Part shown: positions 40,997 to 60,059 of the stretch, piece after piece
How the letters are laid out: every line of letters starts with the position of its first letter
How positions within the stretch are numbered: the first letter of the stretch is position 1
NCBI GenBank assembly: GCA_029856045.1
Contig: JAHQWG010000016.1
Coordinates: forward strand, 192,001 to 256,000
Direction: 5' to 3'
DNA from: Promethearchaeia archaeon
Lineage (GTDB): Archaea > Asgardarchaeota > Lokiarchaeia > Sigyniarchaeales > SOKP01
DNA: 64,000 nt
Notes under the pieces: model-generated
Databases searched by the model: none
Seen by the model: the letters and a program-made list of their open reading frames with translations, nothing else
What the model was told of the DNA's origin: nothing
Made by a program: the position numbers and the translations under genes

Positions 40997-41803
40997 ATGA
41001 GAGATTTTAGAATTATTCAGCATATCAACCTCTCACTGGATTCATTAAAAGATCCTATTTGTCTCCTCGGTATGCCTGGCATAGCCGATGTAGGCAAGTT
41101 CGCAATCGATCAAATCATTGGTCTCTTAAAGGCAAAACCATATTTAGAAATTATATTTAATGATTATCCAGCAGGAGCTATCGTTGATGATAGTATATTA
41201 TCTGCCCCTAAAGCAGAAATAATGTTTTGGAAGGATCCAAACAATATAAGAGATCTTTTGTTAATTACTGCTGATTCCCAAGCACTTAATCCCAAGGGAA
41301 TTTATAAAATATCAGATTTTATAGCAAGTCTAATGTATAAATTTAGAATAAAATTAATAATTTCTCTCGGAGCTTTTCCAACTAATAGTCCATCAAAATC
41401 TCCTTCGATATTTTTTAGTACAACAAATAAAGATTTTATTGATCAATTTATCAAGGACGGAAAATGTAAAAAGATTAAAAAAGGAGTTATCGTTGGAGCG
41501 AATGGTTTAATTCCCACATTAGTAAAAGCCAGATTTAATATTGATGGAATTGTATTTTTAGCAGAAACCGATAATATTGCGGTAATTAATGATGAGATTA
41601 CAGACTTGAAGGCGTCTATTACTTTAATTAATTTATTAAAAGATAACTTTAATTTACCAATTGAAAGAAAATATACATTAGAAAAAATTGATGAGATTAC
41701 TAAAAATCTACAAATCAAGAAAGAGAAATTAGAGCGTGATTTAGATAATTTCCACCTAATGGATAAAAATTCCGAAGAAAAAAGGAAATCATTATATATT
41801 TAA
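40997..41803 (+). CDS. PAC2-family proteasome assembly chaperone
   Basis: GMPGIADVGK, IISLGA, GANGL, LAET, C-terminal LYI (HbYX). Confidence 0.85.
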   Translation: MRDFRIIQHINLSLDSLKDPICLLGMPGIADVGKFAIDQIIGLLKAKPYLEIIFNDYPAGAIVDDSILSAPKAEIMFWKDPNNIRDLLLITADSQALNPKGIYKISDFIASLMYKFRIKLIISLGAFPTNSPSKSPSIFFSTTNKDFIDQFIKDGKCKKIKKGVIVGANGLIPTLVKARFNIDGIVFLAETDNIAVINDEITDLKASITLINLLKDNFNLPIERKYTLEKIDEITKNLQIKKEKLERDLDNFHLMDKNSEEKRKSLYI

Positions 41804-43727: not shown

Positions 43728-44333
43728 ATGTCTATTGATTATGAAGGAATTATATCTGAATTGATGCAAAGAGATCCATCTATAATTGCCATTGCGGTTA
43801 TAACAGGAGCTCGAGATATTGTTTATTCAACAGATAATTGGGATATTAGCTCAGATATTAGTAAAGTTTCATCTGCATGGAGTTCAATGAATGCTCAGTT
43901 TGTAATGATTTCTGGTGTAAAATACTCCATGTTACAATGTACTATTGAAAGAATGGTATGTACTAACATAAAAGGGCAGGGACACATTGTTGGGGCTAAG
44001 GATGATGAGCATAAAATTATTGCATATGTCGAACCCGAAGCGGATATAAATGGTGCTTATATGGATACAGCTCGAACCTTATCTAAACTAAGTTCAAAAA
44101 CCCCCTATTTGGAAGAAAATGCCCGATTAGGAACTTCCCAACCAGTAGCTCCCGTTTCTGGAGGAGAAACTATTGATCCTCAACTAAAAAGTGAAATTAC
44201 GGCTTTTCTTGATTGGATAAAAGCCGAAGATGGGCTTTCGGGATATCTAAGTTATTATCTTCAACAAAATAATGCAAATATCATGAGCGAATTGGCAAAA
44301 ATTTATAATGATTTACGCAATATTTGTCAATAA
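43728..44333 (+). CDS. Asgard profilin with C-terminal extension
   Basis: STDNWDIS, ISGVKYSMLQ, ER...TNIKGQGH, AYVEP resemble Lokiarchaeal profilin motifs as recalled; ~80 extra C-terminal residues. Confidence 0.75.
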   Translation: MSIDYEGIISELMQRDPSIIAIAVITGARDIVYSTDNWDISSDISKVSSAWSSMNAQFVMISGVKYSMLQCTIERMVCTNIKGQGHIVGAKDDEHKIIAYVEPEADINGAYMDTARTLSKLSSKTPYLEENARLGTSQPVAPVSGGETIDPQLKSEITAFLDWIKAEDGLSGYLSYYLQQNNANIMSELAKIYNDLRNICQ

Positions 44334-44558
44334 TTGGTATTTAACACAATTTTTTAAGTGAATATACTTGTATTTTCTTTTTTCCTTTAAAATTCTTTTT
44401 TAACAATTTCTAATTTTAAATTTTTATTATGAAAATAAAAAATTATTTTAATCTCAATGTTTCTTAAATTAAATAAATAGTAATGAAAACAAATTAAGTG
44501 GTGAAATCAAATAAAGCTATATATAATTCAAGATAATAAAATCATATCTTCTAAAAAA

Positions 44559-45692
44559 TTGTCTTATGATAATTTTATATTTATATTTGATGCTCAAAAT
44601 GAAATTGGGGGTTTTTGGAAAGGTGAATTTGCTGAAGAATTTGATGAAATTTTTGCTAAGGAAATTATAGAAAAAATTATTAAGAAATTTGGTGAATTAG
44701 ATTTTAGGATTTTCGATACATTAGATCCAAAAAATGAAGAAGATAATAATAACAAAATCTTAAAAATTGAAATCTTAAAAAGATTACCTAATAAGACCCT
44801 TTGGAAAATTAAAAGAAGAATTTCGTCCTTATTTGTATCTAAAAAAATTATATCTAAAATTGGAGAATTTCGTACATTTGATAGTTCATGGAAATGGCGT
44901 AGAGACTTATTAAATTTAGATAATATTAATAAATTGTCAATTACAAATATATTAATTATGTTTTTTACCATATTCTTTATTTATAATATAGGAATTTTAC
45001 AATTGTATGATGGAACTCTTTCTTTTTTGTTTATTATTTTTATTTTATTAGCTTTAACTATAGTTAACTTAATATTTGTTTTATTTCCAATGAGATTTCC
45101 TGGAATTATAAAAAAAATAATTAATTTAGAAGATAAGGAACATGAAGAGGAAGAAGTCCAGACAAGAAAAATTGAAGAAATAAAGGTCATTAAAGAACCT
45201 CTTAAACCATCTGTCCCTATCTTACCTTCAGAGCAGAAATTCGAAGTATCGTCAAAACTTCTATCTTTAATTAAATCTAATACTTCATCAAAAAAAAATG
45301 AAAAGGAAAAAACAAAAAAAGAAAAAGAAAAATCATTAGAATCTCTTAAAGATGGAAAATCTGACCTAAAAATCCCAGAAGTTCCAGTAGCTCCTCCAAA
45401 ACAGATAGTAAAACTCGATTCCCCCGAAATTTCTCCCGAACTCTTAAAAAAAATAACTAAAGGAGAAACTAAAGAAATAAAATATATGCTTGTTAAATGT
45501 GATAGATGTAATAAAATAATTGCATTTCCTGTTCCAAAGAAAAAAGTTCTTAAATCAGAATTACCTGTTGTTCCCATTTCATATATTCATGGAAAGGGAA
45601 AGGAAAGACACTGTTTAACAGCTCATGTTGATCATGATTTTGATATTAGACGACGGCGGGTTTCTGATGTTGTATTTGAAGAATTGGAGTAA
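44559..45692 (+). CDS. Membrane protein with probable N-terminal gelsolin-like domain and C-terminal Zn-binding domain
   Basis: Two hydrophobic helices, Pro/Lys-rich linker, CDRC..H..HC domain; frame is open upstream to an ATA at 44511. Confidence 0.6.
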   Translation: MSYDNFIFIFDAQNEIGGFWKGEFAEEFDEIFAKEIIEKIIKKFGELDFRIFDTLDPKNEEDNNNKILKIEILKRLPNKTLWKIKRRISSLFVSKKIISKIGEFRTFDSSWKWRRDLLNLDNINKLSITNILIMFFTIFFIYNIGILQLYDGTLSFLFIIFILLALTIVNLIFVLFPMRFPGIIKKIINLEDKEHEEEEVQTRKIEEIKVIKEPLKPSVPILPSEQKFEVSSKLLSLIKSNTSSKKNEKEKTKKEKEKSLESLKDGKSDLKIPEVPVAPPKQIVKLDSPEISPELLKKITKGETKEIKYMLVKCDRCNKIIAFPVPKKKVLKSELPVVPISYIHGKGKERHCLTAHVDHDFDIRRRRVSDVVFEELE

Positions 45693-45727: not shown

Positions 45728-45943
45728 CTATAAGAAGTAAATAAATATTAATGCAATTGAAATCGGTACAATACATAAAATAAGAAGAAATAATAACCAA
45801 CTCTTGGTCCAATTTATAAAACTATTTGGATATAAAATTGCGTTACATTCTGGGCATCGCTGAATACTCTTATCAATAATTTCTAATTTACAATTCCAAC
45901 AAAGAGTCTTTTTAAAATATTCTTCTTTTTTCAATGAAAACAA
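45728..45943 (-). CDS. Small Zn-ribbon protein with C-terminal TM anchor
   Basis: CWNC..CPEC followed by a hydrophobic C-terminus. Confidence 0.65.
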   Translation of the reverse strand: MFSLKKEEYFKKTLCWNCKLEIIDKSIQRCPECNAILYPNSFINWTKSWLLFLLILCIVPISIALIFIYFL

Positions 45944-46891: not shown

Positions 46892-47257
46892 ATGAATATA
46901 ATTGCTGAAAAGAAGGTTCAAATAGATAATATTACTATTTATCTTACTTTACTAAAATTATATCGAGGCTATGTTCTTTTTATATCTGATCAAGAAAATT
47001 TTGGATTAGGTTCTATTACTTTAAGCACACCACCTTTAAATGATGTTCTAAAATCAACATCTGTTTCGTATCAACTGTTTGGAATGGAACATAACTTATT
47101 ATCTAAAATGATTGTAGAAAAAGCAGCGAGTAATTTAAAAGAACCAGTTATATTATTATTTTTTTTAAAGGAAAAAGAAAAGGAGAAGGAACTCATTAAG
47201 CCAATTATAACATTGCTCAATCAAATTTTAGAGGAATATGAGAATTTTAAAAAATAA
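46892..47257 (+). CDS. Proteasome assembly chaperone 4-like protein
   Basis: beta-rich N-terminus, LGSITLSTP, S..LFG....LS..I.EK.A..L..PV pattern recalled for PAC4-like proteins. Confidence 0.5.
   Translation: MNIIAEKKVQIDNITIYLTLLKLYRGYVLFISDQENFGLGSITLSTPPLNDVLKSTSVSYQLFGMEHNLLSKMIVEKAASNLKEPVILLFFLKEKEKEKELIKPIITLLNQILEEYENFKK

Positions 47258-56907: not shown

Positions 56908-60059
<3,152 letters not shown>

Follow-up and report, generated by a model that had tools for sequence, protein, structure and literature searches.

Introduction

Cultured Loki-type archaea crawl and build actin-filled protrusions, and no protein is known to attach Lokiactin to the membrane or to direct its assembly to that site. 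Could such a protein be encoded next to a profilin? This question is raised by a locus of a Promethearchaeia archaeon of the order Sigyniarchaeales, in which a profilin gene (open reading frame A, ORF A) is followed by a second gene, here called gene B. Both lie in the window, a stretch of 64,000 nucleotides of contig JAHQWG010000016.1 (assembly GCA_029856045.1, positions 192,001 to 256,000 of the forward strand), whose initial annotation had proposed a profilin beside a membrane-anchored, gelsolin-like protein.

Published surveys hold only soluble gelsolins and profilins (bioRxiv 10.1101/2025.11.30.690169). Akil et al. 2020 describe ProGel, 1DGelX and 2DGel and report no transmembrane form (PMC7444086). 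A preprint on a crawling Lokiarchaeum lists five soluble gelsolin-homology proteins and two profilins, its authors stating that co-immunoprecipitation (co-IP) under-represents membrane proteins (bioRxiv 10.1101/2025.11.30.690169). Full-text literature searches for an Asgard gelsolin described as transmembrane or membrane-anchored with the architecture of gene B found none.

Here we describe gene B as a divergent gelsolin-fold head joined to basic helices, a transmembrane (TM) hairpin, a proline-containing arm and a C-terminal domain (C-domain), and we argue that its product may be a membrane-anchored actin-binding scaffold. The genome (3.34 Mb in 55 contigs) encodes the presumed target, one Lokiactin-type actin (443 bits on the Pfam Actin model), along with two further actin-like genes, four to five canonical gelsolin ORFs and four profilin paralogues, one long and three short.

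Results

Gene B encodes a gelsolin-fold head

Gene B has 26 close homologues and its family comprises 124 representative clusters. A family profile, A2, was built from ten family members. Its top 27 matches in the PDB all belong to the gelsolin superfamily (gelsolin, villin, adseverin, CapG, fragmin and Thor ProGel, 7C2F_B), the best being villin at E 5e-7, and an hhalign comparison of the head with the canonical gelsolin domains of its own genome gave E 2.6e-5 at a probability of 75%. The AlphaFold2 (AF2) model, based on a 16-sequence alignment and with a predicted local distance difference test score (pLDDT) of 69-87, consists of four strands (E3-9, E12-15, E24-29 and E34-39) followed by a long helix (H48-62), a fifth strand (E66-70) and a short helix (H81-93). 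All 50 of the 50 PDB matches listed by Foldseek for this model are gelsolin-family chains, and the best among those listed is the actin-bound Thor ProGel (7c2f_B, E 2.5e-4, TM-score 0.68 by target). The head has both the sequence similarity and the fold, a mixed sheet between a long and a short helix, of the gelsolin superfamily (PF00626). The initial annotation had seen the gelsolin pattern by eye and had named fold prediction as its check; the resemblance proves to be far above chance by profile, hhalign and Foldseek, and the AF2 model of the extended N-terminus has a gelsolin-type fold. Furthermore, the gelsolin signature residues D29, G35, W38, G40, A43 and E48 are invariant across the family, and the acidic residues D22 and D47/E48 are conserved at positions only roughly aligned with the calcium site, the register being uncertain.

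The fold does not by itself specify the ligand, and identity to the actin-binding gelsolins is low. A head that binds something other than actin, as in Sec23/24, within a cluster serving another membrane process is nevertheless very unlikely in our judgement, since the listed profile and fold matches are all actin-binding gelsolin-family chains, with actin-bound ProGel the best by fold, no Sec23/24 chain appears in the profile-versus-PDB or Foldseek match lists of the head, and the neighbouring gene is a profilin.

Among characterised proteins, Thor ProGel and the single-domain Asgard gelsolins (7C2F; PMC7444086) likewise have one gelsolin/cofilin-type domain of ~90 residues. ProGel, the best structural match, shares with the head the N-terminal strand and the D..G..W.G..A...E signature; however, ProGel is a free soluble domain, whereas the head of gene B continues into basic helices, a membrane hairpin, the proline arm and the C-domain. 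In Thor 1DGelX and L. ossiferum B35_GelX, too, non-gelsolin sequence extends a single gelsolin domain. The domain X of 1DGelX has been described as a predicted coiled coil, and 1DGelX fused to green fluorescent protein (GFP-1DGelX) was concentrated at endoplasmic reticulum and nuclear-membrane regions in human cells (PMC7444086). Gene B is set apart from 1DGelX by description only, and two gelsolin-helical proteins of 197 and 201 aa from its own genome fit 1DGelX better. In these ~200-aa proteins (L012:1138-1740, minus strand, and L013:1447-2037, plus strand; own-genome contigs C30 and C51) a canonical gelsolin domain precedes a C-terminal half that is helical and in which the motif ELC.LL.EL is repeated; they have no TM helices and probably correspond to the 1DGelX type of the literature.

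Translation of gene B likely starts at an ATA codon

The first two strands of the gelsolin domain are provided by 16 codons that lie upstream of the start chosen by the gene caller, TTG 44559 (377 aa). The frame is open from 44505, right after an in-frame TGA at 44502-44504, as far as the stop at 45690-45692, and it reads exactly as the N-terminal peptide quoted in the initial annotation. The first start codon of translation table 11 in this frame is ATA 44511. Between the window and relative L005, codons 44511-44556 differ by 4 synonymous and 2 conservative changes, with 87.5% nucleotide identity as against ~69% in the intergenic spacer. ATA 44511 and the preceding Shine-Dalgarno-like GGTGA are conserved in three genomes; the latter is found in G139 and, in the form GGGTGA, in L005, within a spacer that is otherwise only ~69% identical. 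In more distant relatives the same beta strand begins with a canonical codon (TTG in L022, ATG in G083), and by hhalign it aligns with the MQLY N-terminus of the canonical single-domain gelsolins of the same genome. By this pattern of conservation the 16 codons are conserved coding sequence. We take 44511 as the likely start because of their coding-like conservation, the kept ATA and GGTGA, the canonical starts in distant relatives and the strand aligned to gelsolin N-termini, bearing in mind that ATA rarely serves as an initiator.

The same observations bear on a second explanation, that translation starts at TTG 44559 and leaves a head without its first two strands, a decayed gelsolin fragment acting as a mere cytoplasmic spacer. 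Such a truncated product would account for the lack of a canonical start upstream of 44559, for the ATG that the sister genome G139 has at this codon and for the choice of the same codon by gene callers in the 95%-identical homologue P0004. Upstream codons that evolve like coding sequence and are better kept than the spacer, a conserved ATA and GGTGA, canonical starts at the upstream position in distant relatives and a strand that matches canonical gelsolin N-termini speak against it, and we consider it highly improbable.

Membrane hairpin, proline arm and a previously undescribed domain

The head is followed by basic helices and a TM hairpin with a short loop that carries the invariant G170. 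On account of the distribution of positive charge, the juxtamembrane helices and both ends of the hairpin are placed on the cytoplasmic side, and we infer an N-in/C-in topology. The arm behind the hairpin is rich in charged residues and proline (K 20%, E 16%, P 9%) and contains two conserved PxxPxxP motifs, at 45207-45236 and 45366-45401; P235, P238 and P241, and L288, P291, P294, P297 and K299, are invariant. Proline enrichment ahead of the C-domain is general in the family: proline makes up 11.9% of residues there versus 5.7% elsewhere, and PxxPxxP occurs in 52 of 95 family proteins, with a p-value that overstates the contrast because the proteins are related by descent. The two TM helices and the Lys/Glu/Pro linker that had been read from the sequence are borne out by the hydropathy scan, the AF2 model and the composition.

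The C-domain is a previously undescribed domain that belongs to no known family. Its AF2 model from 107 sequences (pLDDT 85, predicted TM-score 0.72) contains a beta domain of ~70 residues with an invariant CxxC (C332, C335), conserved H362 and H369 and a terminal DHDFD.RR motif. The four Cys and His residues, which are invariant or nearly so, lie where strands 1 and 3 end and strand 4 begins. Comparison with Pfam and PDB sequences gave no match, no zinc-ribbon model of Pfam reaching its cut-off, and no solved fold was matched by Foldseek against the PDB (best E 0.2) or in VIA wide (best Z 3.5). Two actin-capping-protein rows in VIA wide (Z 3.5 and 2.9) are at the level of noise and were not used. 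The closest models in the ESM Atlas belong to unnamed Promethearchaeota clusters (TM-score by query 0.61-0.81), and the only named row is a bacterial zinc-ribbon family (TM-score 0.46). Zinc binding is plausible from the Cys/His pattern. A Zn-binding domain had been annotated at this place, and of that claim the CxxC/His domain stands; its zinc label draws on the conserved Cys and His residues, with no known family or fold behind it.

ORF A is a long profilin with a conserved C-terminal extension

ORF A shows significant sequence similarity to proven profilins across the whole fold. By phmmer against the PDB it matches 5zza_P at E 2.5e-14 (residues 12-122), 5yed at 4e-11, 5zzb at 6e-11 and 7pbh at 3e-10; on the Pfam Profilin model (PF00235) it reaches 16.7 bits, under the cut-off of 25. 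Residues 1-125 align over the whole fold of the Asgard profilins with solved structures (Odin 5ZZA, Loki-1 5YED/5YEE, Loki-2 5ZZB and Heimdall 7PBH; E 1e-10 to 1e-14). Unlike these, ORF A ends in an extension of ~55 residues that is strongly conserved and in which invariant Trp and Tyr are frequent. The gene had been called a profilin, which holds, with the amendment that it is a special long paralogue and not a canonical one. It shares its genome with three other profilin paralogues, all of them short and only ~28% identical to it. The long form occurs in at least 597 clusters of ~200 aa at ~60% identity, extension included. In a sample of 121 genomes from across the phylum, it was present in full length in the family of the window (15 of 15) and a sister family, and in no other. 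Neither ORF A nor gene B matched anything in NCBIfam, and the profilin tail found no usable look-alike among Atlas models.

Other long or fused profilins were also observed. A second, more divergent long-profilin paralogue (210-232 aa, E ~1e-45) is present in many relatives of families f1 and f2, for example at G008:C27:1387-2025 and G099:C5:41140-41766; none was seen in the genome of the window at E 1e-20. At L026:494-1696 (plus strand; G094) a profilin-type N-terminal domain is joined to a TrmB-type winged-helix regulator, a label given by eye with no family search made, and similar profilin-fusion ORFs of 400-445 aa occur in G049, G117, G071, G109, G065 and G030. This suggests that profilin folds also serve as sensor or partner domains of transcription factors. 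No profilin/TrmB-like fusion was found in the genome of the window.

A conserved profilin/arm core with a variable gelsolin anchor

Architectures were called among the 124 representative clusters by domain hidden Markov models and a hydropathy scan. Besides the full arrangement of head, TM hairpin, arm and C-domain, the family includes head and TM hairpin only, TM hairpin with arm and C-domain, soluble arm and C-domain, tandem C-domains and one variant without the TM hairpin (P0007). The RHH-like N-termini suspected in some soluble arm-C proteins found no support in Pfam. A 222-aa variant of gene B at L005:5001-5669 (plus strand) keeps the head, the second proline motif and the C-domain and is without the TM hairpin and most of the arm; seen on a single contig only, it could be a true deletion or an assembly artefact.

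The block of zinc finger, long profilin and gene B recurs at 35-50% identity in L001, ROoop31x, L002-L005 and L022, and adjacency to the profilin, on which the initial annotation had staked its proposal, is conserved in these relatives and across the order. The neighbour of the long profilin was classed in 41 genomes of the order. It is the fused protein in the genus of the window and in G139 (also in the relatives L001 and L022), the TM-arm-C form in L002-L004, and a soluble arm/C-domain gene in 11 genomes of two genera. Six genomes have a split arrangement, with the gelsolin-TM gene downstream and the arm/C-domain gene upstream and divergent (G083, G089, G126, G132, G136 and G137), while G131 and G135 carry a fused form of 426-445 aa and an extra arm/C-domain gene. 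In G135 the arm/C-domain gene adjoining the long profilin (L025:2710-3441, minus strand) contains three exact PPPPKLPGSVSA repeats, which score 37.4 bits on the Pfam FH1 model, just under the cut-off of 40, in a match that is compositional. The gelsolin head is no fixed component of the system, since many relatives have the arm and C-domain alone next to the profilin or encode head and tail in separate genes. As gene order and sequence indicate, the conserved core is the long profilin with the proline arm and C-domain, and the gelsolin-TM anchor is an add-on that was fused onto it in this genus. The occurrence of the same parts as split and as fused genes, a Rosetta-stone pattern, suggests that head-anchor and arm-tail are linked and act together, and gene neighbourhood is what ties gene B to the profilin. 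Among the genomes sampled, the gelsolin-TM module was not found outside the order of the window. Weak matches to the C-domain turned up in four other Asgard families, and there without the long profilin. Two soluble proteins combine a gelsolin repeat, a proline-rich linker and the C-domain, the repeat scoring 23.2 bits in P0124, above the Pfam cut-off, and 19.5 bits (Pfam) in P0115.

This variety could also mean that the arm and C-domain form a general adaptor tail grafted onto many proteins, the head being a spare, divergent copy that has stopped binding actin and the adjacency to profilin an inherited order. We hold this explanation to be possible, if somewhat doubtful. The occurrence of the C-domain alone, in tandem and with TM hairpins and its weak matches in the other Asgard families would fit it, as would the loss of the head in many lineages, the position of the cluster inside a housekeeping-gene block that is syntenic across the order, and one look-alike cluster of the ESM Atlas (TM-score by query 0.61) with ubiquitin domains in a quarter of its members. 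However, the invariant gelsolin signature and the confident model of the head argue for purifying selection on a working domain, the C-domain is joined repeatedly to gelsolin repeats and proline-rich tracts, and the block of zinc finger, profilin and gelsolin-TM stays intact though its orientation relative to TFB differs between two families.

Surroundings of the locus

The coordinates of the features are collected in Table 1. The window is AT-rich (GC 25-35%), and GC rises to 0.50 at 58001-60000 versus 0.25-0.35 elsewhere. The zinc-finger protein encoded ahead of the profilin has an N-terminal Cys/His ribbon and a C2H2 finger. A homologue of 152-164 aa stands directly 5' of the long profilin in L001, ROoop31x, L002, L005, L022, G083, G137 and G126, and the protein may be a fourth member of the cluster. 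One flank of the locus carries a gene for a PAC2-family proteasome assembly chaperone (40997-41803, plus strand, E 4e-24), with RpoP and TFB located between it and the zinc-finger gene, and the other a weak PAC4-like ORF (46892-47257, plus strand, E 0.009). Convergent with gene B, a 71-aa ORF (45728-45943, minus strand) encodes a CxxC...CxxC zinc-ribbon head and one C-terminal TM helix.

Table 1. Features of the locus in window coordinates; residues of gene B are numbered as in P0002, in which residue 3 is codon 44511.
Feature	Position	Strand	Basis or remark
C2H2/zinc-ribbon protein, 162 aa	43149-43637	+	weak Pfam zf-C2H2 matches
Long profilin gene (ORF A), 201 aa and stop	43728-44333	+	phmmer against the PDB
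Long profilin, profilin domain	~43728-44102	+	
Long profilin, variable Gly/Ser linker		+	
Long profilin, conserved C-terminal extension	~44169-44330	+	
GGTGA, Shine-Dalgarno-like (putative)	44500-44504	+	6 nucleotides upstream of ATA 44511
Gene B (gelsolin head, TM hairpin, proline arm, C-domain)	44511-45692	+	393 codons from ATA 44511
Gelsolin-fold domain, residues 3-95	44511-44789	+	AF2, Foldseek, profile against the PDB, hhalign
Basic juxtamembrane helices, residues 96-137, Lys/Arg- and Trp-rich	44790-44915	+	AF2 helices 97-110, 113-120, 125-136; conserved motif
Two-helix TM hairpin (TM1 ~144-162, TM2 ~175-193)	44916-45086	+	hydropathy scan; AF2 helices 138-160, 171-193
Disordered Lys/Glu/Ser/Pro arm, residues 195-310	45087-45434	+	pLDDT <50 over 197-288
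C-domain, one helix and a five-stranded beta domain, last 85 residues	45435-45689	+	AF2, 107 sequences

Discussion

What, then, does the locus do? We give about an even chance to the reading that gene B is a membrane-anchored actin-binding scaffold working with the long profilin. Its product would be an integral membrane protein whose two-helix hairpin keeps both ends in the cytoplasm. By homology to the single-domain Asgard gelsolins, the head would bind a Lokiactin monomer or the barbed end or side of a filament, so that capping, severing or nucleation would take place on the cytoplasmic face of the membrane; homology is likewise what points to actin tethering by the head. The proline arm and C-domain would form a docking module that acts with the adjoining long profilin, so that the locus would couple actin assembly to the membrane or regulate it locally. 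The rest of such a system is encoded in the same genome, in the canonical gelsolins and the three short profilins. A complex prediction for the long profilin (A5) with the arm and C-domain (A6) scored 0.00 against a mark of 0.32 and was counted neither way.

Several findings weigh against the scaffold. Even at an E-value limit of 1 the single sequence of gene B does not match Pfam Gelsolin (PF00626), no more than two of ten family members match it weakly (E 0.013), and the head is ~14% identical to solved gelsolins; since the single sequence fails to reach the Pfam model, the head has to be regarded as a divergent member. No ATG, GTG or TTG stands upstream of TTG 44559 in the open frame, and a complete head would need the rare ATA. 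The head is moreover dispensable, as its loss in relatives indicates. The adjacency of gene B and profilin may partly be mere inherited gene order, because the whole neighbourhood (PAC2, RpoP, TFB, zinc finger, profilin, gene B and aldolase) is syntenic and all genomes that bear the cluster belong to one order. Loki profilins were reportedly found by Akil and Robinson in 2018 not to bind polyproline. Finally, an orthologue of the profilin may have been assayed already. The closed genome G137 encodes a long profilin of 207 aa and 22.83 kDa, and B35_Pro1 of the crawling Lokiarchaeum is a protein of 22.82 kDa that is well expressed (mean log2 19.5; bioRxiv 10.1101/2025.11.30.690169, supplement); from the matching mass we infer that they are the same protein, if G137 is Lokiarchaeum ossiferum. 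B35_Pro1 was not significantly enriched in the Lokiactin co-IP (log2 fold change 0.31, p 0.17; bioRxiv 10.1101/2025.11.30.690169), which, if it is the long profilin, counts mildly against strong actin binding under those conditions. B35_Pro2, which co-purified with Lokiactin in L. ossiferum, was considered as the long form and rejected, as its 14.47 kDa are those of a short profilin. The protein with the neighbouring locus tag, GNAMCCOK_02670, was detected in L. ossiferum proteomes (bioRxiv 10.1101/2025.11.30.690169) and is possibly the gelsolin-TM protein, a match that we offer as a lead only.

A bolder extension of the scaffold reading follows formin-like logic, with the locus as a membrane-embedded actin assembly machine. 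Here the gelsolin head would hold or nucleate the end of a Lokiactin filament at the membrane, the PxxPxxP arm, or in relatives the FH1-like repeats, would supply the head with profilin-actin by way of the dedicated long profilin, and the Cys/His domain would dock the aromatic-rich tail of that profilin. We think it unlikely that all three steps hold together; if they did, the locus would supply the first actin nucleator or elongator that is an integral membrane protein, and a prokaryotic means of driving protrusions. What gene B shares with formins and Ena/VASP is logic only, namely a domain of actin-end-binding type, a flexible proline-rich arm and a profilin, encoded alongside here. In contrast to them, gene B has no FH2, EVH1 or WH2 domain, carries short PxxPxxP motifs in place of long polyproline runs and is anchored by TM helices. 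No FH2 match was found in Pfam for gene B and its relatives, so that it is not a formin, and the likeness is one of analogy and not of membership.

Between close relatives, the modules of the family (head, anchor, proline arm and tail domain) are shuffled in a eukaryote-like manner. With its gelsolin-fold head on a TM hairpin, gene B is a concrete and expressible candidate for the coupling of actin to the membrane. It is linked genetically to a profilin paralogue that is dedicated and highly conserved, and to a domain not described before. Closed genomes of the order contain this cluster too, so the idea that these archaea may couple their actin to the membrane in this way could be tested in organisms that can be grown.

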